Both the position numbers and the translations under genes were made by a program. This document shows, piece after piece, positions 30,684-46,260 of a DNA stretch of 64,000 nt. The notes beneath the pieces are model-generated. The model was given only the letters and a program-made list of their open reading frames with translations, was not told where the DNA came from and did no database searches. This DNA comes from a virus (Duplodnaviria > Caudoviricetes), in IMG/VR virus record IMGVR_UViG_3300037312_001491, positions 1-64,000 of that record. The stretch is one strand, 5' to 3'. Every line of letters begins with the position of its first letter. Position 1 is the first letter of the stretch.

Positions 30684-31154
30684 ATGACCAAGACCCAGAC
30701 CACGCGCGTCGCTGACGCGTCCCCCGCCCCGAAGGGCGGCGTGACCATCTTCTCTGCGAAGGACGCGGCCGCGGCCGCGCGTCCGTTCATGCGGCTCGAC
30801 GAGCAGGAGACTCTCGTCGTGCTGCACCTCGACGTGCACAACAAGGTGATCGGGGATCCGCGCATCGCGGCCATCGGCACCATGACGAGCGTCGAGTGTC
30901 ACCCACGCGACGTGTTCCGTGCCGCCATCGCGACCAACGCGGCCGCTGTCGTCGTGCTCCACAACCACCCGGTCGGCGACCCGACGCCGAGCGACGCGGA
31001 CATCGGCGTCACCCAGCGGCTCCTCGCCGCGGGCATCGCGCTCGGTATTCCGGTCCTCGACCATGTAGTCGTGACGGCCGACAACCACGTGTCGATCCGC
31101 GAGCAGGGCGGTGGCGGTGTGGCCTACGAGCGCGTGCCGGAGGTGACGCTGTGA
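30684..31154 (+). CDS. radC: RadC-like JAB domain protein
   Basis: EQETLVVLHLD...HPRDVFRAAI...VVLHNHPVGDPTPSDAD...LDHVVV. Confidence 0.92.
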   Translation: MTKTQTTRVADASPAPKGGVTIFSAKDAAAAARPFMRLDEQETLVVLHLDVHNKVIGDPRIAAIGTMTSVECHPRDVFRAAIATNAAAVVVLHNHPVGDPTPSDADIGVTQRLLAAGIALGIPVLDHVVVTADNHVSIREQGGGGVAYERVPEVTL

Positions 31155-33316
31155 AGCCCAACCAGGAAGTTCAGACCGTCGCCACGAGCGCGACAGCGTC
31201 GGCGTCGTTCGGCATCTCGCGCGCGGACGAGGCCCACATCATGGGCATCCTGCGCAGCACCCTCTACTCCGACAAGATCCTCGCGGTCCTGCGCGAGTAC
31301 GGCGCGAACGCGTGGGACGCCCACCGCTCCGTCGGCCGCGGCGATGTCCCCATCGAGGTGACGTTGCCGACGTACGACGCGCCCGTCCTGCGCATCCGCG
31401 ACCGCGGCCCCGGCCTGTCGCGCAACGAGGTGTTCACCGTCTACACCCAGTACGGCGCGAGTAGCAAGCGCGACGACGACAACGCGGTCGGCATGCTCGG
31501 TATCGGCTCCAAGTCGGGCTTCTCGTACGCGAGCAGCTTCACGATCACGAGCTGGCACGCCGGCACCAAAGCGATCTACGTCGCGGCGCTCGACCCGAGC
31601 AACCGCGGCCTCATCAACCTCATCCACGAGCAGTGCCTGTGCTGCGAACGCCCCGTCGGCACGAAGAAGGACGAGGCCGACGAGACGGTCTACTGCGAGT
31701 GCACCGCGCGGCTCGCGCCCGAGACCGGCATCGAGATCCAGATCGTCGTGAAGCCGGCCGACGTCGACAAGTTCGAGGAGCGCGCCGAGCGGCTGTACGT
31801 CCACTTCGAGCCGCGTCCGACCATCAACATCCAGCTCCCTCCGCCCCCCGAGGGCGGGCTCACGAACGAGCATGGAACCATCCGTCCAGGTGGCCACGGT
31901 GACTGGGTTGCGGTGATGGGCTGCGTGCCGTACCGCATCCGCCTGGGCGAGCTGGACCTGTGCGCCGAGCACCAGTGCCTGCACAACCTGTCCGGCATCA
32001 TCCGGTTCGGCATCGGCGACGTGCAGATCGCCGCCTCGCGCGAGGACCTCGACTACACCGACGCGACGCGCGCCGCCATCACGGCGAAGTTCACGGAGCT
32101 GGTCGACGCGTTCGTCACGCAGTCGGTCGCCGAGCTGGAGGCGATGAGCCTGTGGGACCGGCGCCTCCGCGCGCAGGTGCTCAGCAACCTTGGTATCACC
32201 CTGCCGGCCGAGTACGGCGAAATCGCCAAGGGCTGGGTGAAGTTGTTCGAGCCGAGCGACGACGGCGTGCCGTTCCGCATGTGGCACGTCAGCGAGCAGA
32301 CCAGCCAGATCCAGGTCGAACCGGACACGCGCATCTACATCGACGACACCGGCAAGCTCCTCAAGGGCTACGCCCGCTCGATGGAGCGGCACTACTACGT
32401 GGTGCGCGCCAAGACGCGCGGCATGTCGTACGACGACCTCAAGGCCGTCGTCGACGAGCACATCAACGCGTGCCTCGTCACCGGCATCCCCATCCATCGG
32501 CTCTCCGAGCTGCACTGGGACTCGACCGCCAGCTCGCGTGGCGGCCGCTCGTGGGGTGCCGACAAGAGCAAGCACAAGGCGTCGATGTTCGTCCTCGACC
32601 CCGAGGCGCAGTTCAAGCACCCGTTCTCCAACGCGTGGTCGACGGTGACGCGTGTCCCCGAGGACACCGACGTGTTCGTCATCCTGGAGAACTTCAAACC
32701 CAACGGGGTCGACTCGTTCTTCCTGGAGTACCGCGACGACCGCGTGCTCGCCGAGGCGTTCGGCGTCGAGATGCCGCAGGTCTACGGGTACAAGTCGACG
32801 ACGAAGAAGACCGTCCGCCCGTCTGACTGCAAGGGGCTCACGTACGACGCGTGGCGCAAGCAGTTCATCAAGGACCTCGGCACGCCCGAGCGCCTCGCCG
32901 AGATCTCCGAGATGTGGTGGGGGCACGTGCTCCGCTACACGGCCGACAGGTACGACCGCAAGTTTCTGCGCGAGCAGCTCGGCCGCGACCACGCCGTCGT
33001 CCGCCTCGTCTCTCGGTGCGCACACGCCGACAGCATGAAGAACCGGGACGCGCTGCTCGCGCTCGCGACTCGGCTTGGCATCGCGAAGGACACGTCGGCC
33101 GCGCACGCGGCACTCGAAGAGATCCTCAACCGCTACCCGCTGCTCCGGTGCAGCGACTACGGCGTCCGGTCGCTGTGGTTGAACTACACCCGGAACCACC
33201 GCAACGAGTGGTGCAAGTACGTACGCCTCGTTGACGAAAGCCTAAATCGTACCCAGACTGTCGACACCAAGAAAGGAACCGCCACCGATGCAGCCGATTC
33301 CGTACAGCCTGTCTAA
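31151..33316 (+). CDS. rIIA: rIIA-like protein (GHKL ATPase N-terminus)
   Basis: LYSDKILAVLREYGANAWDAH, IRDRGPGLS, YGASSKR...GMLGIGSKSGFSY. Confidence 0.9.
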   Translation: MKPNQEVQTVATSATASASFGISRADEAHIMGILRSTLYSDKILAVLREYGANAWDAHRSVGRGDVPIEVTLPTYDAPVLRIRDRGPGLSRNEVFTVYTQYGASSKRDDDNAVGMLGIGSKSGFSYASSFTITSWHAGTKAIYVAALDPSNRGLINLIHEQCLCCERPVGTKKDEADETVYCECTARLAPETGIEIQIVVKPADVDKFEERAERLYVHFEPRPTINIQLPPPPEGGLTNEHGTIRPGGHGDWVAVMGCVPYRIRLGELDLCAEHQCLHNLSGIIRFGIGDVQIAASREDLDYTDATRAAITAKFTELVDAFVTQSVAELEAMSLWDRRLRAQVLSNLGITLPAEYGEIAKGWVKLFEPSDDGVPFRMWHVSEQTSQIQVEPDTRIYIDDTGKLLKGYARSMERHYYVVRAKTRGMSYDDLKAVVDEHINACLVTGIPIHRLSELHWDSTASSRGGRSWGADKSKHKASMFVLDPEAQFKHPFSNAWSTVTRVPEDTDVFVILENFKPNGVDSFFLEYRDDRVLAEAFGVEMPQVYGYKSTTKKTVRPSDCKGLTYDAWRKQFIKDLGTPERLAEISEMWWGHVLRYTADRYDRKFLREQLGRDHAVVRLVSRCAHADSMKNRDALLALATRLGIAKDTSAAHAALEEILNRYPLLRCSDYGVRSLWLNYTRNHRNEWCKYVRLVDESLNRTQTVDTKKGTATDAADSVQPV

Positions 33317-34586
33317 CGACGTCCTGACCGTCACGGTCGAGGGCTCACCCAAGTTCGTCCGCAAGGGTGCCTCCGAGTTCGAGGCCCTGCGCGCCGCGCT
33401 CATCGCCGAGGACTGGGACACCGCGCACTCCTTGCTCAAGCCGGGAGGGGGCGTCGCGCACTACCTCGCGGCCCACAACACCGTCGCCGGTATCGCGCAG
33501 TTCCAGCTGCGCGACGGCCAGCTCTACTTCAACGACGAGCGGGTCCACCCCAACGTCGCTTCGCGCATCGACCGCATGGCGGCCTCTGGCGAGGACCCGA
33601 CGCCGGTGATCCGCTTCTACGAGCGTCTCCAGCAGAACCCGAGCAAGCGGTCCGTCGACCAGCTGTTCGACTTCCTCCAGCACCTCGGCCTGCCGTTCGA
33701 GGCGGACGGCACGTTCCTCGCGTACAAGGGCGTCAACGACGACCTGTCCGACAAGTACACCGGCCGCATCTTCAACACGCCGGGTGCGGTCATCAAGATC
33801 AACCGCAACCTCGTGTCGGACGACCCGCGCACGCCCTGCCACGAGGGACTCCACGTCGGCGCCCACGCGTACGCGAGCACGTTCGCCTCGACCACCATCG
33901 CGGTGCGCGTCGACCCCAAGAACGTCGTCTGCGTGCCGTACGACTCTAGCAGCCAGAAGATGCGCGTCTGCGAGTACGAGGTCATCGGCCTCCACTCGGG
34001 TGAGCTGATGCCGAACAACACGATCCCGGCCGCGGACGTGCCGGCGAAGTCCACCGCAGCGAACCTCGCGCCGTGCGCGAATTGCGGTATCCAGACGCAC
34101 GCGGTGGAGAACTTCTGCCACGGCTGCAAGCAGGTCGTGTGCAACGACTGCGACCAGGACCACGACCGCGCGATGGGCCCGCACGAGCTGAGCGACCACC
34201 TGACCCTCGACTCGCCGGCGGCCGACAGCCGCAAGGGCGAGATCGACCCGGAGTACGAGAACGTCGCGGAGACGGTCGACGCCGTCACCGTCGCGAACGA
34301 GCCGGCGGTCGAGGCGTTCACCGGCGAGCAGCTCGACCAGGCCGTCACCGAGCACGCGCACGAGGCCGAACAGGCCAAGAAGTTTCGTCAGTTCAAGAAG
34401 TTGACGACGCGCCAGCTCCTGGAGCAGACGCTGACCGACCTCCGCGAGTACGCCCTCAAGCTCAAGATCGTCGGCTCGGGGCACATCAAGGGCGGCAAGA
34501 CGGCCCTGGTGCCCCACATCGTCAAGGCACGCAGCCTGGCGAACCGCAAGCGCCTCAAGGTGCGCGGCAAGAAGGCCCGGAAGTAG
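33288..34586 (+). CDS. rIIB: rIIB-like protein with zinc-finger and C-terminal extension
   Basis: NPSKRSVDQLFDFL...DGTFLAYKGV...RNLVSDDPRTPCHEGLHVG...VDPKNVVCVPYD...KMRVCEYEV. Confidence 0.9.
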   Translation: MQPIPYSLSNDVLTVTVEGSPKFVRKGASEFEALRAALIAEDWDTAHSLLKPGGGVAHYLAAHNTVAGIAQFQLRDGQLYFNDERVHPNVASRIDRMAASGEDPTPVIRFYERLQQNPSKRSVDQLFDFLQHLGLPFEADGTFLAYKGVNDDLSDKYTGRIFNTPGAVIKINRNLVSDDPRTPCHEGLHVGAHAYASTFASTTIAVRVDPKNVVCVPYDSSSQKMRVCEYEVIGLHSGELMPNNTIPAADVPAKSTAANLAPCANCGIQTHAVENFCHGCKQVVCNDCDQDHDRAMGPHELSDHLTLDSPAADSRKGEIDPEYENVAETVDAVTVANEPAVEAFTGEQLDQAVTEHAHEAEQAKKFRQFKKLTTRQLLEQTLTDLREYALKLKIVGSGHIKGGKTALVPHIVKARSLANRKRLKVRGKKARK

Positions 34587-35564: not shown

Positions 35565-38309
35565 ATGGCCGACGAGAAGTCCGGGCGCACGAAGCGAGGC
35601 ACGTTTGCACCTGGCACCTCCGGCAACCCCAGCGGCAGGGCGAAGCCCCGAACCGACGCCGCGCCGGTTACCAGGCTGGACGGCTGGCAGAACTTCTTCT
35701 CCGGCCATGGTGTCTACGGCCGCGACAAGCGCCAGGGGACGAGCTTCAAGGCCGCCACCCTGACGTTCGACCAGCTCGCCGAGCTGTGGCGCGGCGACGA
35801 CCTCGCGGCACGCGCCGTCGAGACGCTGCCGAAAGAGTCTCTCCGCGAGGGTTACGATCTGTCGATCCCCGAGGCGGCGCTGGGTGGCGAGGACGAGGCC
35901 GAGCGCATCGCCGAGATCGTCGACGCCCTGTCGACACTGGGGGCGGACGAGACGATCCGTACCGGCCTCTGCTACGAGCGTGGCCTAGGTGGTGGCGCCG
36001 TCCTCATCGGCGCGAACGACGGCCAGGACGACCTGACCAAGCCGCTGCGCCTCGAATCCATCCGTTCGCTCGACTGGCTGACCCCGCTCGAACCGCGCGA
36101 GATCATGCCGGTGTACGGCTACGCCGACCCGCGCGCCCCGAAGTACGGCCAGCCCGAGATCTACCGCATCACGAGCCGCACCATCCTGCCACCGCAGGAT
36201 GGCAAGTACGGCAACCAGGTGATGGACATCCACGAGTCGCGGCTCCTGGTGTTCCCCGGCATCCGCGTCAGCCGCTACCAGTACATGGCCTCCCAGGGCG
36301 GTTGGGGTGACTCGGTGCTCATCCGCATGTGGCGCGTGCTCCGCGACTTCAACCTCGCGTGGGGCTCCGCCGGCGCGCTCGTCACCGAGTTCGCCTCGGC
36401 GACGTACAAGATGAAGGACCTGTGGACGGCGCTGTCGACGAAGGGCGGCGCGCAGGCGTTCGCCGAACGCCTCCAGGCGATGGACCTGGCACGGTCGACC
36501 ATCAACGCGACTGTCATCGACGGCGACGACGACTTCAAGCGCGAGCAGACGCCGATCTCCGGCCTGCCCGACCTCATGGACAAGTTCTCGACGCGCCTCG
36601 CGGCGGCCGCGGACATGCCGCTCACGCTCCTGTTCGGCACGAGCCCGGCGGGCCTCAACGCCACCGGCGAGTCTGACATTCGCTTCTTCTACGACCGCGT
36701 CGCCGCGTTCCAGCGCGACAAGGTGCTGCCGCAGCTCAAGACGCTGATCCGGATTCTGTTCCGCACACTCGGCTCAAAGGTGGAGCCCGAGAAGTGGGAC
36801 GTCGAGTTCCGTCCACTGTGGCAGGAGAGCGCCAAGGACAAGGCCGCCGCGATGCTCACGCAGGCGCAGGCCGACCACATCTGGGTCACCGACGGCATGC
36901 TGTCGGCCGAGGAGGTGGCGGACGCACACTGGGGCACCGGCAAGTGGGTCCCCGACCTCCGCGTCGACTTCGAGGCGCGCGAGCGCCAGGAGGCTGCGGC
37001 CGCCGCGCCGGTCACGCAAGCTGACTTCGCGGCGATGGGTCGCGGCCCCAACGGCCAGCCGCTCCAGCCAATGCCGGGCCAGCGCCAACTCCAGCCGGGC
37101 CCCGCGCAGTTCGGTCGCCCGCAGCCGCAGCCTGGCTTCGGACAGCCGGTGCAGCGCCAGCTCCAGCCCGGCCCGGCGATGCCAGGTCAGAAGCCGGTCC
37201 CTGGCCAGCAGTCACCCGGTCAGGCGCCAGGCGCGGCCGCCGCTCAGGGTGCCGCCCCCGGCGCAGCTCCGGGCGCGAAGGCGTCGAAGCTCGGCGCCAG
37301 CGGCTACCGCTACGCACCGGACGTCACCCAGCGTGGCCAGGGGGCCGACGACGACATCGACCGCAAGCCGCGCTCGATGGTGCTGTCGAACGACGCCGAC
37401 GACCGTCCGCAGCTCAGCGTGGTGCGCGAGGACGTGATCGAGCATGCGTCCGACGGATGGCACGTCTACTCCGAGACCGAGCCGCGCAAGCATCTCGGCG
37501 GCCCGTACCAGACGAAGGAAGGCGCGATTGAACGACTGCGCCAGGTCGAGGGCCACGCCCGTGACGACAGCTTCAACCCGGACCAGCCACGCGCCGAGAA
37601 TGGCGAGTGGGGCGAGGGCGGCGCCGGTGGCGCGCACCCGAGCGCACCGACGTCCGGCGAGCACGCCGCAGCGCAGGGCACCTCGTTCGAGCAGGCCGTC
37701 CACGCGGTCTCAGCCGGCGAGAAGCACGGCATGACCGCCGAGCACTTCAAGGCGCTCGTCGAGAGGAAGAAGGCGGAGTCCGACGCGCACAAGAACGCGG
37801 TCCAGGCGTTCGCCGCCAAGCTCACGCCGATCGAGACGCAGGTCTCCAATGGCTACGGCGTGTTCGGAGAGGTCGTCAACGGTGCACTCCGCGCCGGTCG
37901 CCCGCCCAGCTCGGCCGACGAGAAGGCCGCGATCGGTGCGCTCGATAGTGCCATCAGGAAGTCGAAGGCGCCGGCCGACATGATCGTGTACCGCGGCATC
38001 CACAGTGACCGGGACCCGATGGCCAAGCTCAAGCCCGGTGTCGTCATCCGCGACAAGGGTTACGTGTCGACGACAGGTTCCCGAGACATTGCGGCCGAGT
38101 TCGCGCACCGGGAACACACCGGCAAGCTCGATCCGTCGTCCACGAGCGTCATCGTGAGGATCAAGGTTCCCAAGGGCCACCCAGCCGCGCCGATTCCGTC
38201 GACGTACCGGTTCGAGCACGAGTACCTCCTGCCTCGCGGCAGCAAGTTCAAGATCACCTCGGTCGCGAAAGAGGGCGGGGACACCGTCGTCGAAGCGGAG
38301 GCCCTGTGA
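35565..38309 (+). CDS. Portal protein (DUF1073 type) fused to Q/P/G linker, small domain and C-terminal VIP2-like ADP-ribosyltransferase
   Basis: DGWQNFFSG, ARAVETLPKESLREG, YGQPEIY, IHESRLLVFPG, GWGDSVL, GLNATGESDIRFFYD; C-terminus YRG...GYVSTT...EHEYLLPRGSKFKI (R-S-E triad). Confidence 0.9.
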   Translation: MADEKSGRTKRGTFAPGTSGNPSGRAKPRTDAAPVTRLDGWQNFFSGHGVYGRDKRQGTSFKAATLTFDQLAELWRGDDLAARAVETLPKESLREGYDLSIPEAALGGEDEAERIAEIVDALSTLGADETIRTGLCYERGLGGGAVLIGANDGQDDLTKPLRLESIRSLDWLTPLEPREIMPVYGYADPRAPKYGQPEIYRITSRTILPPQDGKYGNQVMDIHESRLLVFPGIRVSRYQYMASQGGWGDSVLIRMWRVLRDFNLAWGSAGALVTEFASATYKMKDLWTALSTKGGAQAFAERLQAMDLARSTINATVIDGDDDFKREQTPISGLPDLMDKFSTRLAAAADMPLTLLFGTSPAGLNATGESDIRFFYDRVAAFQRDKVLPQLKTLIRILFRTLGSKVEPEKWDVEFRPLWQESAKDKAAAMLTQAQADHIWVTDGMLSAEEVADAHWGTGKWVPDLRVDFEARERQEAAAAAPVTQADFAAMGRGPNGQPLQPMPGQRQLQPGPAQFGRPQPQPGFGQPVQRQLQPGPAMPGQKPVPGQQSPGQAPGAAAAQGAAPGAAPGAKASKLGASGYRYAPDVTQRGQGADDDIDRKPRSMVLSNDADDRPQLSVVREDVIEHASDGWHVYSETEPRKHLGGPYQTKEGAIERLRQVEGHARDDSFNPDQPRAENGEWGEGGAGGAHPSAPTSGEHAAAQGTSFEQAVHAVSAGEKHGMTAEHFKALVERKKAESDAHKNAVQAFAAKLTPIETQVSNGYGVFGEVVNGALRAGRPPSSADEKAAIGALDSAIRKSKAPADMIVYRGIHSDRDPMAKLKPGVVIRDKGYVSTTGSRDIAAEFAHREHTGKLDPSSTSVIVRIKVPKGHPAAPIPSTYRFEHEYLLPRGSKFKITSVAKEGGDTVVEAEAL

Positions 38310-40300
38310 GCAATAAGCGTTTCACCTGGACCGACGGCGACTTCGAGGTCGTCGAGTCGGGCGACCGCACCGACGACTTCAACCCCGACGAGCCTCGCGC
38401 GGCGGATGGGAAATGGGGCGAGGGCGGCGCCGGCGCCGCACAGAAGACTCCGGCCGCCGGCAAGGCCGGTCCGAAGGGTGAGGCTAAGGAGGCCGCGGAG
38501 TCCAAGGACAAGCCGAAGGCCGAAGACAAGCCGGCCGCGGAGGTGAAGGCGACCACCGCGCACACCGGCGCGTCGTTCGAGGACTGGCACAAGGTCAACC
38601 CGAACGGCAACGGTGAGGTGTTCTCGGACGCGCGCAAGGCGCTCGCGACCGAGACCGTCGGCCAGAACGCGTGGTTCAACTTCTCGAAGGCGAACGAGGG
38701 CAAGCCGGTCAGCCAGCGCAGCTTCGCCGATCAGAAGGCGTTCCTGCTCGACCCCAAGCTGTACCAGCCGCTCATCGACCGTGCGACGAAGCACGACGCC
38801 GCGGACGACGAGGACACGGACCTCTACTTCACGTGCCCGTGCCACCGCCGAGCGGCGGCCGCCCGCGCTGACTACGATGAGAGCGAGCCGCGCGACGAGA
38901 ACGGCAAGTGGAGTGGTGGCGGTGGCGGCAGCGCGGCCGCCCCCCACGCACACGGGGGCGAGCACGGCGCACCGCACGGCGGCGCCAAGGAGCTGGCTGA
39001 GAAGGCGAACGCCGGCGGCGGCTTCACCTACGACCCGCACCACGGCAAGTACCCGACGGAAGGCTACGCGGTCTCGATCCACCCGGGCCACGAAGAGGTC
39101 ATCCGCTCGAAGGAGCTTTCGCCGGAGGCCGTGAAGGGTTACCTTGACCGGCACGGAGACTACATCCAGAAGCACCCCGGTGCTCACGTCGGCGGTTGGT
39201 ATGACGCCGAGGCGGGCAAATGGTACCTGGACGTCAGCCACATCACGCACGACCCACACGAGGCGGAATCCCTCGCGAAGCAGCACAACCAGGAAGCGTA
39301 CTACGACCTCGGCAAGCACGAGACCGTCTACGTCAAGTCTGGAAAGGAACGACGACTCGATGAGCGACAAGCCCAAGACACCGCCCGCCGGCGCACGAAA
39401 GATCTTCTTCGACCCCGCCAAGATGTCCCCCGAGGAGATCGCGGAGGCGATGAAGAAGCACGAGGAGCAGGAGCACGCGCGCCGGGGAATCCCCCGGAAG
39501 CCCGAGTAGACTACTCCCCCGACGAGCCGCGCGCGGCCGATGGGAAGTGGGGCGATGGCGGTGGCGGTGGCCGCGCGGCCGCGTCGTCGCACGTCGAGCA
39601 CGCCAAGACCTCGTCGGTCCGCTCGCGCGAGCACGCCGGGAAGGCCGAGACGGAGGCCGACCGCGCGAAGGCGTCGAAGGGCAAGGCGCAGGCCAAGCAC
39701 GTCGAGGCGGCGCACGACCACGCCCGCGAGGCCGAGCGTCACGCCCGCGAGGCGAGCGCCGCGGCTGACCGCGCGAAGGAGGCCGGCGGCGAGGACTCGC
39801 CGTCCGCCAAGGAGGCGTCCAAGCACGCCGTCGAGGCGACCTCCAACGCGAAGGCAGCCCGCACGCAGGCGTCCGGTGCACAGAAGGCCGCGTCGTCTGG
39901 CGGGCAGGCCGGTGCCGCGCGCGCCGCCGCCGACAAGGCGACGAAGGTGGCGGAGAATCTCCACGCCGCCGCGGTTGAGCACCCGACGAAGGCCGGGCCG
40001 ACCGCCGAGGAGGCGGACAAACACGCCAAGGCCGCACGCGACCACGCCCGCGCAGCCGCCGGCGCAAAGACGCCCGAGGACGCCGCACAGCACACGGCGA
40101 AAGCACACGAGCACGCCGCCGCGGCGGAAGAGGCGGCCGCCAAGCTGACCCGCGAGGCCGCGAAGCACGCGCAGCATGAAGGCCACGGCAAGCACGCCGA
40201 ACACGGCGGCCATGGCAAGCACGAGCGCGCCGAGCACAACCACAAGCACGTCGCCGAGAGTTGGCAGGCCCTGCTCAAGATGCTCATGGGTGCCGGATGA
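38306..40300 (+). CDS. Modular (polyvalent) virion-associated protein with three DxxPDEPRxxxGKW motifs and His/Ala-rich tail
   Basis: GTG overlapping portal stop; repeated motif; GGFTYD...GGWYD...YLDVS...NQEAYYDL domain. Confidence 0.7.
   Translation: MSNKRFTWTDGDFEVVESGDRTDDFNPDEPRAADGKWGEGGAGAAQKTPAAGKAGPKGEAKEAAESKDKPKAEDKPAAEVKATTAHTGASFEDWHKVNPNGNGEVFSDARKALATETVGQNAWFNFSKANEGKPVSQRSFADQKAFLLDPKLYQPLIDRATKHDAADDEDTDLYFTCPCHRRAAAARADYDESEPRDENGKWSGGGGGSAAAPHAHGGEHGAPHGGAKELAEKANAGGGFTYDPHHGKYPTEGYAVSIHPGHEEVIRSKELSPEAVKGYLDRHGDYIQKHPGAHVGGWYDAEAGKWYLDVSHITHDPHEAESLAKQHNQEAYYDLGKHETVYVKSGKERRLDERQAQDTARRRTKDLLRPRQDVPRGDRGGDEEARGAGARAPGNPPEARVDYSPDEPRAADGKWGDGGGGGRAAASSHVEHAKTSSVRSREHAGKAETEADRAKASKGKAQAKHVEAAHDHAREAERHAREASAAADRAKEAGGEDSPSAKEASKHAVEATSNAKAARTQASGAQKAASSGGQAGAARAAADKATKVAENLHAAAVEHPTKAGPTAEEADKHAKAARDHARAAAGAKTPEDAAQHTAKAHEHAAAAEEAAAKLTREAAKHAQHEGHGKHAEHGGHGKHERAEHNHKHVAESWQALLKMLMGAG
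39360..39509 (+). CDS. Small protein overprinted in +1 frame inside the 38306-40300 ORF
   Basis: AAGGA RBS, ATG, phage-typical GC3 codons: MSDKPKTPPAGARKIFFDPAKMSPEEIAEAMKKHEEQEHARRGIPRKPE. Confidence 0.6.
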   Translation: MSDKPKTPPAGARKIFFDPAKMSPEEIAEAMKKHEEQEHARRGIPRKPE

Positions 40301-41664
40301 GCTGCTGTCGCCTCGACCGCGGGGCGCTGCCGAAGCCGAAGCGGCCGCGTACCCTGCCCATCCAGGTCCCGCCGACAGCGATCGAGGCCCAGTACGCCAA
40401 GGCGCTCGTCCGGTACGTCATCGGCGCGATGCGCTGGGCGTACGCGCCGCTGCTGCGCGAGGCCCCCAAGCTCGTCAAGGCGCGCGCGGCCGCGCGGCAC
40501 GACTCCGCCGACGAGTGCACTACGACGATGTTCGCCGGGCTACCGATCGTAATCGAGAACCCGGCCGGCTCGTTCCGGTACTGGGTCGACACGACCGGGC
40601 GCGCCGGCACGACGGTGATGCGGTACCCGTACGGCTACGTCCGCGGCGTGCGTGGCGCCGACGGTGACGAGGTCGACGTGTTTATCGGTCCAGACGAAGC
40701 GGCGCAGTGGGTGTACATCGTGCACCAGCGGTTCGCGCCGAAGTTCGTCGACTTCGACGAGGACAAGGTGATGCTCGGGTTCCCGAGCGCCGACGCCGCG
40801 CGCGCGGCGTACCTCGCGCACTACGACGACCCCCGCTACTTCGGGGGGATGACCCAGGTCCAGCGCGAGGCGTTCGAGCGCGCGGTCGCGGCCGCTCGCG
40901 GCGGCAAGATCACCCACGTCGACTCGCTGACGGCCGTCGCTCGCTACGACTCCCCGGAGTCGCGTCGGGTGCAGAAGCTCATCCGCGAGGCCGCACGCCG
41001 GCTCCGGCTCAAGCTCAACAAGCGCGAGATCGCGCGGCTGGCGAAAAAGTTCGCCGAGCAGACGAGCACGTACCAGCGCGTGCAGCTCCACCGCCAGGTC
41101 CACGCGGCCCTGGGCATCGCGGCGCCGCTCGCCGCCGAGTACACGCAGAGTCGCATCGCCGACTTCGTTCGCGAGAACGTCGCGCTCATCTCGCGGATTC
41201 CACAGGAGCACCACGGCGAAATCGAGACGATGGTCCACCGTGCGGTCACCAGCGGCCAGCTCACCGACGATCTCGCCGACGACCTGGAGGACGAGTTCGC
41301 GCTCTCCGAACGCCACGCGCGTTTCATCGCTCGTGATCAGATCGGCAAGCTCCAGGCCGACCTCAACCACGCGCGCCAGCGTGACCTCGGCGTCAAAAAG
41401 TTTGTGTGGCGGACGATGCGCGACGAGCGCGTCCGCGGCACGCCCGGCGGCCTGTACCCCAACGCGCAGCCCAGCCACTTCGACCTCGATGGCCAGGAGT
41501 TCTCCTACGACGACCCTCCGCAGCCACCTGGTGCCCAGGGGCCGCTTCTACCCGGGGATGACTACAACTGCCGCTGCTACGCCGAACCAGTTTTTGATGA
41601 GCTGGTGGAGGACCTGCGCGTGGCCGAAGTCGATCCGGACGAAGCGTCGATGGAAGCGGAATAG
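40297..41664 (+). CDS. MuF-like minor head protein with inserted inorganic-pyrophosphatase-like domain
   Basis: C-terminal ARFIARDQIGKL...FVWRTMRDERVR...H..LDGQEFSY...PGDDYNCRC; insert IVIENPAGS.R...YGYVRGVRGADGDEVDVFIG...FDEDKVMLGF. Confidence 0.9.
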   Translation: MSCCRLDRGALPKPKRPRTLPIQVPPTAIEAQYAKALVRYVIGAMRWAYAPLLREAPKLVKARAAARHDSADECTTTMFAGLPIVIENPAGSFRYWVDTTGRAGTTVMRYPYGYVRGVRGADGDEVDVFIGPDEAAQWVYIVHQRFAPKFVDFDEDKVMLGFPSADAARAAYLAHYDDPRYFGGMTQVQREAFERAVAAARGGKITHVDSLTAVARYDSPESRRVQKLIREAARRLRLKLNKREIARLAKKFAEQTSTYQRVQLHRQVHAALGIAAPLAAEYTQSRIADFVRENVALISRIPQEHHGEIETMVHRAVTSGQLTDDLADDLEDEFALSERHARFIARDQIGKLQADLNHARQRDLGVKKFVWRTMRDERVRGTPGGLYPNAQPSHFDLDGQEFSYDDPPQPPGAQGPLLPGDDYNCRCYAEPVFDELVEDLRVAEVDPDEASMEAE

Positions 41665-41966
41665 CTCCAGAACTTACGCGAGCATGGCGCGATCCGGAGG
41701 GGGTGCCATCCTGACAGGATGAAGTCGCCCCGCCAGTTCACCCCGGTCCGTCCACGCACCGGTGGGCTCACCCATGCGACGACCCTGGACGCCCCCAGGA
41801 AGACCGCCTGCAACCGCCCCTGCGACGGCTGGGTGGTAGTGTCCGGCCGGCTCCAGGGACGTCGGGTGGTGTCACCGGTGCTGACCTGCGAAGACTGCAA
41901 GGATGCCATCCTCGGCATCGGCGCCGAGGCCGGCGTGCACGCGGCATGCGGAAAGAGGAGGCGCTC

Positions 41967-42227
41967 GTGACCGCCGAGGCGTTCCTCCTGGGCATCGTCG
42001 TATTCGTCGCGGCCGCGCTGTACGACGCCATCTTCGCGGCGTACGTGCGGTTCGCCGCAGGCGGCCAGGCAACGAAGGCGGCGCTGACCTCCGTCATGAC
42101 CTACGTCGTAGGCGCCGTGGGACTTTTGGCGCTCGTCAAAGTGTCGATCTGGTACAGCCTCCCTGAGGCCGCCGGGCTGTACACCGGCACGCTCGCTGGG
42201 GTATGGGCCGGAAGGGACAAGGATTGA
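41967..42227 (+). CDS. Small membrane protein
   Basis: Three hydrophobic segments; GTG after GGAGG. Confidence 0.55.
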   Translation: MTAEAFLLGIVVFVAAALYDAIFAAYVRFAAGGQATKAALTSVMTYVVGAVGLLALVKVSIWYSLPEAAGLYTGTLAGVWAGRDKD

Positions 42228-42437
42228 TGCTGCTCGGACTGCTCCTCGCTGCCGTCGTTGGATTCGAGGTCGCCAGGACTGGACCAGCATTCGAGGAGCG
42301 GCGACGCGCAAGACTGGAACGGCAGCTCGCCCCGGCAAAAGTCATGTACTTACCGAGCGCTGTAGGGCGCGGGCTCGGCCAAGCCGGCGGCCGGTGCACG
42401 TCTCCCACATGCGCCATCTGCCACGGCCGTTCCTGAA

Positions 42438-42454
42438 CTGGCACGATTCTTGCG
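42438..42454 (+). promoter_or_regulatory. Sigma54-type (-24/-12) promoter before head protease gene
   Basis: CTGGCACGATTCTTGCG matches TGGCACG-N4-TTGC. Confidence 0.7.
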
Positions 42455-42487
42455 CTGAGCCCATCCCCCTGTCATCATGGGGGAGTA

Positions 42488-44215
42488 ATGGCGACCCATC
42501 GCCGGCTCGACCTCGGAGAACTGCGGCCCATGACCCGCCGCGGGGACGGGACCGTCCGCGTCCAGGCGCACCTCACGCGCTGTGGCGTGTTTCCATACCT
42601 CCAGCCCGACGGCACCATTCGCCGCGAGCTGCGCCCCCGCGACGAGGTGATGGATCCGGAGTCCCTGGCGTCGTTCGCCGGCGTGCCTGTCACCAACGAC
42701 CACCCGCCCGAGATGGTCGACTCGAAGAACGCCCGCAAGTACGCGGTCGGCTCGCTCCAGGGGACGCCGATTCCCGACGACGACCACGTCCGCGGCGATC
42801 TCTCCGTCTACGACGGCGAGACCATCGGCCAGATGGACAGCGGCTCGCGGCGCCAGGTTAGCCTGGGCTACACCTGTGACCTCGAAGAGACGCCAGGCGT
42901 CGATCCGGTCTACGGCCCCTACGATGCCATCCAGCGGAACATCCGCGGCAACCACGTCGCCCTGGTGACGACGGCCCGCGCCGGTGGCACGGCACGCGTC
43001 CGCCTCGACGCTGCGGAGCAGCTTGATGGCACGGTTCTTGCGCTCTGCACGAACTGTGCCAAGATGCATTTCATGGCGACCAACGCCGCGCACGCCGACG
43101 CAAGCGAGACCGACAAGCCGCAGGGTGGCAAGCCCGAGGCTGGTGACCCGGACACGGGTGACGAGGCTTCGCGCAACGCCGCCGGCGCGAACGACGCGCA
43201 GGCCGGCGATAAGGCCAAGAAGCCGCCGGCGACCGCCGACGACACCGACACGAAGGTCGAGCGCGACAGCGCCGACGACGACGAGGAAGACGACACCCCC
43301 ACCGATGGCGGCGATGACGACGACACCTCGGACGACGACGACGATGAAGGCGACGACTCGGACGACGACACCGACGCCGGTGACGACGACGAGGAAGACC
43401 GCGACGATGACGGCGAGCAGCTGTCGGACGAGGACCGCCACAAGATGGCGACCAGCTCGTTCGCGGTGCCAGACCGAGAAGGTCTGCCCATCCACGACCC
43501 CGATCACACGCGGGCCGCGATGGCGCGCTTCAACCAGTACAAGTTCAAGTCGCCCGAAGAGAAGCACGCAGCGTTCAACCGGATCACCCGGCGCGCGTCG
43601 CACTTCGGCATCGACAGCAAGGGTTTCGAGGAGGCGCATCGCGACCGCCTCGACCGCGAGGACGACGAGATGAAGAAGATCGCCCAGCTCCAGACTAAGC
43701 TCGACGCGGCCGAGAAGAAGCTCGCAACGGCCGAAGGCCAGGTCGCCAGCCTCACCAAGGACCTCGAAGCCGCGAAGAAGACGACCGAGTCGGCCCGCAA
43801 GGACGCCGCCGATCGCTTCGACGCGATGGTCGCCGAGCGCGTCGCGCTCCTGACCGAGGCCGCCGCGACTGGCGCGAAGGTCGACGCGAAGATGTCGTCG
43901 ATCGAGATCAAGCGCACCGTCGTCAAGCACGTCGACGGCGAGGACATCCCGGCCGAGAAGCCGGAGCCGTACGTCGACGCGTACTACGAGGGCGCTCTCA
44001 AGCGCGCTCGCAGGGACGCCGAGGACACGAAGAAGGGCGCAGACGCCCTCGCCGCCGCGCGCGCCACCGCCGCGGGTGCGACGCAGCCGGTCCCGCAGCC
44101 GGTCCCGCACAACGACGCCGACGACACCGATGAGCAGGCGGCCTACGCCCGCGCGAACGCCCGCAACGCCGAGGCGTGGACCCACTCGTGGGGCCGCACT
44201 CAGGAGAACAAGTAA
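42488..44215 (+). CDS. DUF2213 prohead protease/scaffold with acidic linker and inserted DUF6582-like domain
   Basis: AHLTRCGVFPY, SFAGVPVTNDHP, RQVSLGYTCD, QRNIRGNHVALVTTARAG; SSFAVPDREGLPIHDPDHTRAAMARF insert; C-terminal coiled coil. Confidence 0.9.
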   Translation: MATHRRLDLGELRPMTRRGDGTVRVQAHLTRCGVFPYLQPDGTIRRELRPRDEVMDPESLASFAGVPVTNDHPPEMVDSKNARKYAVGSLQGTPIPDDDHVRGDLSVYDGETIGQMDSGSRRQVSLGYTCDLEETPGVDPVYGPYDAIQRNIRGNHVALVTTARAGGTARVRLDAAEQLDGTVLALCTNCAKMHFMATNAAHADASETDKPQGGKPEAGDPDTGDEASRNAAGANDAQAGDKAKKPPATADDTDTKVERDSADDDEEDDTPTDGGDDDDTSDDDDDEGDDSDDDTDAGDDDEEDRDDDGEQLSDEDRHKMATSSFAVPDREGLPIHDPDHTRAAMARFNQYKFKSPEEKHAAFNRITRRASHFGIDSKGFEEAHRDRLDREDDEMKKIAQLQTKLDAAEKKLATAEGQVASLTKDLEAAKKTTESARKDAADRFDAMVAERVALLTEAAATGAKVDAKMSSIEIKRTVVKHVDGEDIPAEKPEPYVDAYYEGALKRARRDAEDTKKGADALAAARATAAGATQPVPQPVPHNDADDTDEQAAYARANARNAEAWTHSWGRTQENK

Positions 44216-44216
44216 C

Positions 44217-44744
44217 ATGCCCGTCCAGACCTCCGTCTCCGTCGCCCCCGCCATCGCCTTCGCCGGCCAGCTCGCCGACGACGCCGAGAACGATGCGATC
44301 ACGCTCCTGAACGCCGAGGCGTCGGCCTCGATGCCGTTCGGCTCGATCGTCGCGTTCAAGACCGCAGCGCCCGTCAGCGAGAAGGACGCGATCCTGCCCG
44401 CCGCTTCAACCGCGAAGATCGCCGGCATCATCATCCACCGTCACAACTACGCCAAGGCGTTCCCGATGAACGGCGTGACGGTCGGTGAGCTGGATGACAC
44501 CGGCCTCCTGGTCGGCATCCCGTTCAGCTGCCTCCGCAGCGGTCGCATCTTCGTCATCTGCGAGGACGGCTGCAACCCGGGCGACCCGCTGTTCGTTCGC
44601 TACGCCGGCGGCACGCTCGGCGCGGCGCGCTCGACGGACGCCGGCAGCTCGACGTGCACCGACCTCACGAACCGCGGCACCTGGCTCTCGAAGGCCAGCG
44701 CCGGCGGCATCGCGAAGCTCGAAGTCGACTTCCGCAACAAGTAA
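44217..44744 (+). CDS. Head decoration/cement protein
   Basis: Position between protease and capsid; AFAGQLAD, MPFGSIV, GRIFVICED, IAKLEV. Confidence 0.75.
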   Translation: MPVQTSVSVAPAIAFAGQLADDAENDAITLLNAEASASMPFGSIVAFKTAAPVSEKDAILPAASTAKIAGIIIHRHNYAKAFPMNGVTVGELDDTGLLVGIPFSCLRSGRIFVICEDGCNPGDPLFVRYAGGTLGAARSTDAGSSTCTDLTNRGTWLSKASAGGIAKLEVDFRNK

Positions 44745-44770: not shown

Positions 44771-45169
44771 ATGAGCGTCACACGCCGTGAGAACAAGACC
44801 CTCCAGGAGAGGGATCGGGTCGAGGCGACCATCGTCGCCGCGGTCGCCGCCACCTCCAGCATCGCGCTGGGCACGATGGACCGCGACTACGTCGTCGACT
44901 CGTTCGAGGTCGAAGCCCCCGGCGGCTACACCGCCGATGACGCCAACCGGTACACCATCACGCTCCAAGCGGGCGCGACGGTGCTGGCGACGCTCGACCT
45001 CACCACCGCAACCGGCAGCCTCGTGGACCTCGTGTTCAAGGCCGCCACGCTCGCCGCGACGCACTACGGCTCGGCCGGGGACACCCTCAAGGCCGTCCTC
45101 ACCAAGAACGGCACGGCCGCCAACATCCCCGCCGGTACTCGCCTCGTGGCGAAGTGCCACCTGCTCTAA
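44771..45169 (+). CDS. Putative second head decoration protein
   Basis: Beta-rich ORF between cement and capsid, GAGGAG RBS. Confidence 0.55.
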   Translation: MSVTRRENKTLQERDRVEATIVAAVAATSSIALGTMDRDYVVDSFEVEAPGGYTADDANRYTITLQAGATVLATLDLTTATGSLVDLVFKAATLAATHYGSAGDTLKAVLTKNGTAANIPAGTRLVAKCHLL

Positions 45170-45183
45170 GAGAGGCCACGATC

Positions 45184-46260
45184 ATGTCCTTCAACGTCAC
45201 CGCCCGTTTCTCCCAGGAGCGTCTCGACAAGATGCTCGCCCAGTCGCGTGGGTATGACCCCCGCGCGCCGCGTGCTGCCCGCATCGACAGCCTGAGTGAC
45301 AACCAGCGCCACCTGCTCGAAGGCATCTTCCACCGTGACGCCTCGGAGAGCATCTGGTTCGCGCGCCAGCTGGAGTACATCCGCCCCGGCCTGCTCGACG
45401 TCCTCTACCCGGCGCTCAACGGCCGGTCGCTCGTGCCGATCGAGTCGTCGATGGGTCCGGGTGCGTCGATGTGGACCTACCGCTCGTTCGACAAGGTCGG
45501 TAGCGCCGCCCTCGTCGACGACTACGCGATGGACCCGCCGCGCGCCGACGTGAAGGGCCGCGAGGACACGCAGGTCATCAAGCCGTACGGCGTCATGTAC
45601 GGCTACAACTTCCAGGAGCTTCGCGCCGGCATGATGGCGCAGCTGCCCCTGGACACGCGCAAGGCGATGGCCGCGCGCTACGCCATGGAGAGGAAGATCG
45701 ACGAGATCATCTTCTACGGCGACACGGCCGGCGGCCTCAAGGGCCTCCTGAACCAGGCGAACACGACCACGTTCAACGTGGCGAACGGCGCCAAGGGCAC
45801 CACGTTCTGGAAGGACAAGAGCCCGGACGAGATCGTGCGTGACATGCACGACTTCGTGAACAACGTCGTGTCGACGAGCCTGGGCGTGTACCAGCCGACG
45901 ACCCTGGTGCTGCCGCTCCGCGCGCATCAGATCGCGTCGACGACCCGCATGGGCGACGGCTCGAACGAGACGGTCCTCTCGTTCTTCCAGAAGACGAACC
46001 CGTACATCCAGGAGGTCATCGCCTCCTACCGCCTCAACTACTCGCAGCGCGCGAACTGGGGTGGCTCGTCGGGTCGCATGATGTGCTACGAGAAGTCGCC
46101 GGACCGGCTGGTCATGATCCTGCCGGTCGAGTTCGAGCAGCTCCCCCCGCAGCAGGAAGGCTACGAGTACAAGACGCTCTGCCACATGCGCACGGGCGGC
46201 GTCGTCTCGCTGCACCCGCAGGCGATCTCGTACGGCGACGGCATCACCAACAGCGACTAA
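45184..46260 (+). CDS. Major capsid protein (DUF2184 / encapsulin-like HK97 fold)
   Basis: WFARQLEYI, YNFQELRA, IIFYGDTAGGLKGLLN, PTTLVLP, RTGGVVSLHPQAISY.DGI. Confidence 0.92.
   Translation: MSFNVTARFSQERLDKMLAQSRGYDPRAPRAARIDSLSDNQRHLLEGIFHRDASESIWFARQLEYIRPGLLDVLYPALNGRSLVPIESSMGPGASMWTYRSFDKVGSAALVDDYAMDPPRADVKGREDTQVIKPYGVMYGYNFQELRAGMMAQLPLDTRKAMAARYAMERKIDEIIFYGDTAGGLKGLLNQANTTTFNVANGAKGTTFWKDKSPDEIVRDMHDFVNNVVSTSLGVYQPTTLVLPLRAHQIASTTRMGDGSNETVLSFFQKTNPYIQEVIASYRLNYSQRANWGGSSGRMMCYEKSPDRLVMILPVEFEQLPPQQEGYEYKTLCHMRTGGVVSLHPQAISYGDGITNSD

Follow-up and report, generated by a model that had tools for sequence, protein, structure and literature searches.

Candidate aspartate-directed processing of cargo-bearing head proteins by a predicted DUF2213 protease in a tailed phage

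The window described here is the first 64 kb (positions 1 to 64,000) of the 88,095-bp IMG/VR virus record IMGVR_UViG_3300037312_001491, which represents an uncultured phage and is rated as complete by CheckV. Its head-gene module encodes a portal protein, a MuF protein and an intervening polyprotein that carry cargo domains or modules, together with a DUF2213 protein that is predicted to be a serine protease. The reading that we favor, with modest confidence, is that this protease cuts head proteins after aspartate at short junction motifs, so that cargo would be freed inside the capsid and delivered with the DNA. An earlier note on this DNA had proposed that the prohead protease cuts at x-x-D sites to free packaged effectors, and four comparative lines now lend that idea support: the fold of the DUF2213 domain, sites conserved across its family, the junctions of a relative with different cargo, and covariation between Asp and the presence of DUF2213.

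The genome has a G+C content of 68%, and no isolated phage was matched at the DNA level when its head module was used as a Megablast query. As a group, the head genes (Phage_portal_3 portal, MuF, DUF2213, cement protein and PF09950 capsid) are nonetheless widespread, being found in Pbunaviruses, Pam3 and many other phages. Close comparison was made with one relative, the viral contig L002/L124. The listed features of the head module lie on the + strand of the window, and an arrow marks each proposed scissile bond, which follows residue P1.

The DUF2213 protein is predicted to be a protease-scaffold fusion

The DUF2213 protein is organized as a protease domain, an acidic linker, a DUF6582 module, a coiled coil and a conserved C-terminal tail.

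42488-44215, +, protease-scaffold fusion, 575 residues (Pfam; phrog_530)
42542-43003, +, DUF2213 protease domain, residues 19-172 (PF09979, E 4e-40)
43001-43009, +, R-L-D174↓A, candidate self-cleavage ("release") site bordering the protease domain
43406-43615, +, DUF6582 module, residues 307-376 (E 5e-10)
44108-44116, +, H-N-D543↓A-D-D, proposed "maturation" site ahead of the conserved C-terminal tail (window sequence P-H-N-D↓A-D-D)

The protein matches the DUF2213 profile at 138 bits (cut-off 22) and PHROG 530, annotated as head maturation protease, with an E value of 3.6e-77; its closest DUF2213 relatives are 65-96% identical. An alignment of 59 family members shows H72, S125, H156 and D174 to be invariant. 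The AlphaFold (AF2) model of the domain has a predicted local distance difference test (pLDDT) score of 90.7, and the top Foldseek matches to it are all herpesvirus proteases or T4 gp21, with a probability of 1.00. Structural superposition by VIA-align places T4 gp21 (PDB 5jbl) first, with a Z score of 12.1 and a root mean square deviation of 2.7 Å over 132 residues, followed by herpesvirus proteases with Z scores of 7-9.4. The D-H-P-P and V-S-L-G-Y segments of the DUF2213 protein correspond to N-H-P-P (containing His85) and V-S-S-R-G of gp21, at a spacing of 53 versus 55 residues; His85 and Ser140 are the residues that we take to be catalytic in gp21. When the DUF2213 alignment was compared by hhalign with the sequence of T4 gp21 alone, only five residues aligned (E 0.44), a result used solely as a pointer to the DHPP/NHPP correspondence, and a phmmer search with the whole protein against PDB sequences returned nothing meaningful. 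On the strength of the model and the matching motifs, the domain is predicted to be a serine protease of the T4 gp21/herpesvirus assemblin type, a fold class to which HK97 gp4 also belongs, with His72, Ser125 and His156 as its active-site residues, and the full-length protein is best read as a protease-scaffold fusion comparable to herpesvirus pUL26.

Two positions within this protein, both in unstructured regions, are conserved as potential self-cleavage sites. The first is the end of the DUF2213 domain, where 147 distinct sequences share the pattern [AV]-x-[LIV]-R-[LM]-D-[AGS], Asp being present in 146 and Arg at P3 in 98 of them. D174 comes after the final strand of the model and falls in a tail of low pLDDT, which is typical of a linear motif rather than of an element of the fold. 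The second resides about 30 residues from the C terminus; among 120 aligned DUF2213 C termini it reads [RHK]-x-D-A, with R, H or K at P3 in 93 sequences (63, 18 and 12, respectively) and Asp in 105. The conserved tail beyond this site probably binds the capsid protein.

The DUF6582 module had been regarded in the earlier note as an inserted cargo domain bounded by RDDD and RDRLDRED. Both the domain and its flanking motifs are present, but DUF6582 accompanies DUF2213 in many homologues, and as a common part of DUF2213 scaffold proteins it is probably a portion of the scaffold rather than an effector.

Cargo modules in the portal, a 664-residue protein and MuF

Three consecutive genes upstream of the protease gene carry the modules in question.

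35565-38309, +, portal-cargo polyprotein, 914 residues (Pfam and PHROG matches, translation)
35649-35681, +, candidate sites P-R-T-D↓A and T-R-L-D↓G at the portal N terminus, immediately ahead of the core
35772-36878, +, Phage_portal_3 domain, residues 70-438 (Pfam E 1.4e-83)
37560-37634, +, R-D-D site and header SFNPDQPRAENGEWGEGGAGGA, ahead of the ADP-ribosyltransferase module
37809-38270, +, R-S-E ADP-ribosyltransferase, residues 749-902 (ADPrib_exo_Tox E 9e-17)
38306-40300, +, 664-residue cargo open reading frame (ORF) with three modules, each opening with R-x-D and a header
38366-38440, +, site and header 1, R-T-D↓D-FNPDEPRAADGKWGEGG
38864-38941, +, site and header 2, R-A-D↓Y-DESEPRDENGKWSGGGG
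39503-39580, +, site and header 3, R-V-D↓Y-SPDEPRAADGKWGDGGG
40297-41664, +, MuF head protein with InPase insert (ORF frame of 40261, probable ATG at 40297)
40495-40503, +, A-R-H-D↓S site, after the N-terminal helix of MuF and before InPase (ARHDS spans 40489-40503)
40525-40884, +, InPase (PF18823) cargo domain, residues 89-208 (E 1.6e-32)
40942-40950, +, A-R-Y-D↓S-P-E-S site between InPase and the MuF core (ARYDS spans 40936-40950)
41218-41580, +, Phage_Mu_F domain, residues 320-440 (Pfam)

In the portal polyprotein, the portal core is followed by a P/Q-rich linker, a small alpha/beta module (approximately residues 615-665), the R-D-D site, the header and the ADP-ribosyltransferase. The last of these, named in the earlier note as an R-S-E ADP-ribosyltransferase, is borne out by a profile match (PF03496; the C3, iota, CdtA and Vip2 group) of 61.4 bits against a cut-off of 23.4. 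It can be aligned to CdtA, iota Ia, C3larvin and Vip2 with V-Y-R, S-T-T and E-H-E all present, and its YR and ExE motifs align to those of CdtA. Even with loose thresholds, Pfam yielded no usable match to the small alpha/beta module (DUF2188 and DUF4177, E approximately 0.05-0.09). Of the two candidate sites before the portal core, the second is kept in the relative as R-R-I-D. Portal residues 11-31 (35595-35660) form a weakly DUF5681-like basic segment (E 0.0012), and the same segment of the relative behaves likewise (E 0.0098).

Between the portal and MuF genes lies the 664-residue ORF, which, like the header peptide, the earlier note had overlooked. The whole ORF has no Pfam or PHROG match, its three modules also gave nothing usable at loose Pfam thresholds, and a protein Atlas search with the second module returned viral hypothetical proteins only. 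Its last module is helical and rich in Ala, Lys and His, ending (approximately 40130-40297) in a His-rich tail, HEGHGKHAEHGGHGKHERAEHNHKH; binding to metal or DNA is conceivable. The GTG start of this ORF overlaps the portal stop codon (GTGA, 38306-38309), and the ATG of MuF in turn overlaps its stop codon (ATGA, 40297-40300); these 4-nt overlaps suggest that the three cargo-bearing genes are translationally coupled.

The MuF protein contains an inorganic pyrophosphatase (InPase) domain (112.6 bits, cut-off 26.8) inserted between ARHDS and ARYDS, as the earlier note had observed. Downstream, between MuF and the protease gene, 41719-42227 holds small overlapping ORFs without a family match, one of which was scanned with Pfam and PHROG and matched nothing; the relative has a hydrophobic-looking 162-residue ORF at the same place. 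A small ORF here, or its counterpart in the relative, might be an immunity or partner gene.

The capsid protein also bears a candidate site.

45184-46260, +, major capsid protein (PF09950; ORF 45154-46260)
45280-45288, +, A-R-I-D↓S, candidate propeptide cut (A-R-F-D↓G in the relative)

An N-terminal extension of about 32-35 residues is present in the capsid proteins of the window and the relative, and most family members are without it; the capsids of most DUF2213 phages start exactly at the position of A-R-I-D↓S. The earlier note had listed RIDS and HRDA at this N terminus. Both are there, and the former coincides with the starting point of other capsids; HRDA is probably a chance occurrence or lies inside the fold.

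R-x-D sites are enriched in head-interior proteins and kept in a relative with exchanged cargo

Every motif quoted in the earlier note can be located, including ARHDS, ARYDS, RDDD, RDRLDRED, RIDS and HRDA. Their interpretation as recurrent R/H-x-D domain junctions holds in part. In six head proteins [RH].D occurs 38 times, compared with 27.5 ± 4.7 in composition-preserving shuffles (P = 0.02), and thus most copies of the loose motif are compositional; many of the listed tripeptides (RED, RGD, HRDA and others) probably arise by chance or lie inside folded domains. A narrower motif separates more clearly. R.D occurs 9.7 times per 1000 residues in five head-interior proteins and 3.2 times in the other 87 ORFs (P = 2.5e-7), and R.D[SYADG] occurs 5.7 versus 0.95 times (P = 1e-8); R.E, K.D and D.R show no enrichment in the same comparison. 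Approximately 10 sites take the form [AV]-R-x-D↓[SAYDG], distributed over four header fronts, both InPase flanks, the DUF2213 end, the scaffold region and the capsid N terminus. [AV]-R-x-D is thus present at the cargo junctions, the protease border, the scaffold and the capsid N terminus; if cut, it would be the counterpart of the protease site common to cargo, scaffold and capsid precursors in the capsid targeting sequence (CTS) system of T4.

The capsid protein of the relative is 75% identical and its gene order unchanged, but its cargo differs: RelA/SpoT is attached to the portal end, a PI3/PI4-kinase-like domain occupies the next ORF, and MuF carries an unrelated insert of 140 residues without a family assignment.

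L124:10772-13771, −, portal with RelA/SpoT
L124:8101-10254, −, ORF with PI3/PI4-kinase-like domain
L124:5818-7635, −, MuF

The headers of the relative are preceded by R-A-D↓Y and R-Q-D↓D. Around its MuF insert, E-R-F-D↓Y and a header stand where the window has A-R-H-D↓S, and K-R-T-D↓S-P-E-S stands where the window has A-R-Y-D↓S-P-E-S. Further sites follow the protease (R-L-D↓A) and occur in the scaffold (R-N-D↓A, R-Q-D↓A) and the capsid protein (R-F-D↓G). Because R-x-D persists at equivalent junctions despite the swap of cargo, the modules behave as exchangeable cassettes between fixed junctions.

The residue before a widespread header peptide follows the protease family

Immediately after R-x-D, four junctions of the window continue into a 22-residue header, [FY]-[ND]-P-D-[EQ]-P-R-x-x-x-G-[KE]-W-[GS]-x-GGG. 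A translation of the 88 kb in six frames contains this combination four times, once before the ADP-ribosyltransferase and three times in the 664-residue ORF, and nowhere else. The header is common in viral contigs: a back-translated core, PDEPRxxxG[KRQ]W, matched 111 stretches, nearly all of which show the extended consensus [FY]-[DN]-PDEPRD-x-x-G-[KR]-W-T-x-GGG within long ORFs, and a second core, PSEPRD, behaved in the same way. Phages whose proteases differ have the header in common, so the protease probably does not use it as a recognition element; a role in address, retention or ejection is more likely.

Asp is found one or two residues before the header aromatic in 13 of 13 contigs that have a clear DUF2213 match or are close relatives of such contigs (two of the matches being weak), and in none of nine complete contigs without DUF2213 (Fisher's exact P approximately 2e-6, calculated by hand and treating contigs as independent). 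One further cluster, with a weak DUF2213-like match of about 33 bits, has Glu in this slot. The nine DUF2213-negative contigs have Lys there in 6 of 10 headers; in the five that came from the first scan, all six headers are of this kind (K-F, K-G-F, K-S-Y, K-A-F). These five Lys-type loci (L026, L046, L055, L076 and L103, on contigs G011, G018, G020, G027 and G035) are accompanied by Peptidase_S78 in three cases, by ClpP in one and by neither in one. With header cores near-identical in both classes, the switch between Asp and Lys is local to the junction. Across 171 DUF2213 loci, 29 of 31 distinct headers are Asp-type; a metagenome scan, which yielded mostly short contigs of no more than 60% identity, added one header-bearing locus.

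Two resemblances to the header were seen elsewhere. The MuF core contains A-R-D-Q-x-G-K-[LF] (IARDQIGKL, approximately 41330-41360), similar to the header core P-R-D-x-x-G-K-W, and ARDQVGKF is present in MuF genes of other DUF2213 loci; the likeness may be a coincidence or a hint to the origin of the header. In addition, a tight cluster of large-phage contigs of 100-217 kb (L206, L209-L215 and some 25 other loci) codes for a protein of roughly 454 residues with the header variant YNPSEPRDPLGKW at residue 51, preceded by KRRFS[FS]M and not followed by a glycine run.

A proposed pathway and its alternatives

From the domains, fold model, motif statistics, conservation and covariation described above, we infer the following sequence of events. 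The procapsid interior would take in the portal-ADP-ribosyltransferase fusion, the three-module 664-residue protein, MuF with its InPase and the protease-scaffold fusion. Cleavage would most likely occur after Asp in [AV]-R-x-D↓[SAYDG], or more loosely in [RHK]-x-D↓. By this rule the protease would release itself from the scaffold at R-L-D174↓A, clip the capsid-binding scaffold tail at H-N-D543↓A and cut the scaffold further at R-x-D↓A, while the capsid N-terminal extension would be removed at R-I-D↓S and the cargo modules severed at eight or so junctions. Most of the freed modules would begin with the header of about 22 residues and a glycine linker. They would be retained in the capsid until they exit with the DNA, and their actions in the host could include ADP-ribosylation, hydrolysis of pyrophosphate or nucleotides, and others.

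A broader version of this proposal is more tentative, and we would sooner doubt than assert it: DUF2213 proteins may be Asp-specific prohead proteases with herpesvirus-like self-sites, and the header, preceded by a P1 residue matched to the protease (Asp for DUF2213, Lys for S78/ClpP), could constitute a "cut here, keep this tag" grammar across tailed phages for plugging any enzyme into portal, MuF or free polyproteins. The Asp-directed specificity, the herpesvirus-like pair of self-sites and the grammar of junction and header appear to be undescribed in the literature that was searched.

Several points weigh against release by an Asp-directed DUF2213 protease. Our literature search found no published cleavage specificity or measured site for any DUF2213 protein, and the nearest structural counterpart, T4 gp21, cleaves after Glu and not Asp. 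Composition by itself would account for about 27 of the 38 [RH]-x-D copies, and the narrower motif was set after the data had been inspected. Arg at P3 is missing before many headers of other DUF2213 phages, in which Asp alone is kept; the R/H-x-D rule of the earlier note therefore extends across these phages in its Asp but not universally in its Arg. Portal and capsid families are common to DUF2213 phages; the Asp-type junction could therefore mark a clade instead of being read by the protease, and the covariation may be partly a product of common descent. Asp at the domain border may be conserved for structural reasons.

The structural literature on related phages is likewise ambiguous. Papers on Pa193 and Pam3 name the DUF2213 protein a scaffold, and its cleavage in Pa193 is left undecided (PMC11456595). 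The portal of the Pbunavirus Pa193 belongs to the same family as that of the window and has InPase at its C terminus; its first 93 residues are absent from liquid chromatography-mass spectrometry and "may be cleaved", and residues 529-765, which include InPase, lack density (PMC11456595). The DUF2213 protein of this phage, gp24, is visible inside the capsid only at residues 286-326 (PMC11456595). These facts are compatible with processing and do not prove it. In Pseudomonas phage Cisa, another Pbunavirus, gp22 (L268:5081-7378) is a 765-residue portal with a C-terminal InPase and no header; G-P-R-D↓H-S-E occurs just before InPase, and A-M-D↓S and Y-G-D↓G occur near residues 70-77.

The best-surviving alternative, which we judge unlikely, is that the fusions stay uncut in the virion, the R-x-D sites and headers being linker, docking or packaging features and Asp a variant of the head-module lineage. 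The sharing of the header core among phages with quite different proteases would agree with this, as would the invisible C terminus of the Pa193 portal, with which a flexible uncut chain is compatible, the weakness of the shuffle test for the loose motif, and the shared portal and capsid families of DUF2213 phages, which leave the labels in the covariation test non-independent. It fits less well with the switch between Asp and Lys before near-identical header cores in step with the protease family, with the restriction of R.D enrichment to head-interior proteins, or with the occurrence of [RHK]-x-D↓A at two conserved places in the protease-scaffold protein itself, neither of which has a header.

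It is more improbable still that cargo is cut by other means, whether through autocatalysis (for example, at an Asp-Pro bond within the header), through a protease of the host or only after injection. D-P does occur in headers such as FNPDEP and FDPDEP, and Asp-Pro self-cleavage exists in other protein families. Processing by a zincin-like peptidase, or after delivery, has been proposed for comparable proteins (Iyer et al., 2017; PMC5512222). Yet DUF2213 is the only peptidase domain that Pfam and PHROG detect among the five head proteins, R-x-D stands without a header or D-P at the InPase and capsid junctions, the second header of the window (DESEPR) also lacks D-P, and covariation with the protease would be left unexplained.

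That R/H-x-D is a meaningless product of an Arg/Asp-rich proteome at 68% G+C is very improbable: R, D and A are abundant and shuffles give 27.5 of the 38 copies, but this explanation is largely refuted by the three- to sixfold excess over the other proteins of the phage with none for R.E, K.D or D.R, by the positions kept in the relative, by the columns conserved family-wide, and by the confinement of R-x-D with a header, across all six frames of the 88 kb, to four occurrences in a pair of neighboring genes.

Comparison with known systems

Processed head cargo is classic in T4 and in phiKZ-like phages. The arrangement in the window resembles that of T4 gp21 with internal proteins IPI-III and Alt in its assemblin fold, His/Ser motifs and proposed acidic P1, in the presence of a head-carried ADP-ribosyltransferase, and in the proposed use of one enzyme for both scaffold and capsid. 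It differs in that the T4 CTS is cut at [LI]-x-E, after Glu, whereas the proposed P1 in the window is Asp; that cargo is fused to portal or MuF or strung together as polyproteins rather than encoded by single small genes; that the header would remain on the cargo, whereas the T4 leader is removed; and that the protease of the window is fused to the scaffold.

This last feature is shared with herpesvirus assemblin of the pUL26 type, which has the same fold, the same His-Ser-His order and protease and scaffold in one chain. The two candidate sites, one bordering the protease and the other some 30 residues short of the C terminus, ahead of the putative capsid-binding tail, are placed like the herpesvirus R and M sites. 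The herpesvirus sites are Ala↓Ser, in contrast to [RHK]-x-Asp↓Ala in the window, and the phage system would add the release of cargo. In giant phages such as phiKZ and SPN3US, as in the proposal for the window, many head-internal and ejected proteins are cut by one prohead protease at short motifs ending in an acidic P1; according to two reports (PMC10052503, PMC7411985), that motif is S/A/G-x-E, with Glu, the protease belongs to another subfamily, genome size differs and there is no header.

That MuF-fused effectors already exist, as the earlier note remarked, is confirmed by the description of InPase, ART (the ADP-ribosyltransferase) and RelA/SpoT domains linked to portal or MuF as polyvalent proteins, for which packaging and injection are predicted (Iyer, Burroughs, Anand, de Souza, and Aravind, 2017; PMC5512222), a work that also cites an InPase-portal fusion in BcepF1. 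The window has the defining combination of unrelated domains in one chain within a portal/MuF module, namely portal with ADP-ribosyltransferase and InPase with MuF, and its relative has portal with RelA_SpoT. For processing, that study proposes a zincin-like metallopeptidase and we propose DUF2213; its text does not mention linker, spacer or DUF2213, and its mentions of prohead or protease are unrelated to the processing of polyvalent proteins.

MuF polymorphic toxins (Jamet et al., 2017; PMC5576092) are similar in joining a variable enzymatic module to a MuF head protein. These have a C-terminal toxin, a temperate phage and an immunity gene, whereas in the window InPase (residues 89-208) precedes the MuF core (residues 320-440), is flanked by two R-x-D sites and occurs in a phage with rIIA/rIIB-like genes; the protein thus does not have the order of N-terminal MuF and C-terminal toxin. 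The text of that paper makes no mention of motif, cleavage, linker or junction.

Two further phages were considered as sources of mapped cuts. ICP1, in which the scaffold is cut into 23- and 17-kDa pieces (PMC10945586), was set aside because its gp124 is not a DUF2213 protein and its protease is Peptidase_S78_2, which makes that paper irrelevant to DUF2213; ICP1 also has a Mu-type portal and an E-type capsid. A P1 paper that maps a capsid cut (PMC9024508) was not used, no relation of P1 to DUF2213 having been established.

If the proposal is correct, it would supply a simple, testable rule for which parts of head genes become free injected enzymes, and would account for the release of effectors fused to portal and MuF. 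A large family that is labelled scaffold in structural papers and head maturation protease in PHROG would gain both a function and a specificity. The proposal would also tie phage and herpesvirus capsid maturation closer together through R- and M-like sites, and offer a natural means to load chosen proteins into phage capsids. Well-characterized Pseudomonas Pbunaviruses (PB1, E217 and Pa193), with this InPase on their portal, are among the members of the DUF2213 family, so material for testing the prediction already exists.

Other features of the region

Two neighbors of the cargo and protease genes complete the picture.

44217-44744, +, cement/decoration protein, start approximate (Phage_cement E 4e-23)
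30896-34586, rIIA-like gene (HATPase_c_3, 806 residues) and rIIB-like gene (432 residues, PHROG RIIB)

The cement protein contains no R-x-D. Immediately ahead of the portal gene stand the rIIA- and rIIB-like genes, an unusual neighborhood for a head module.

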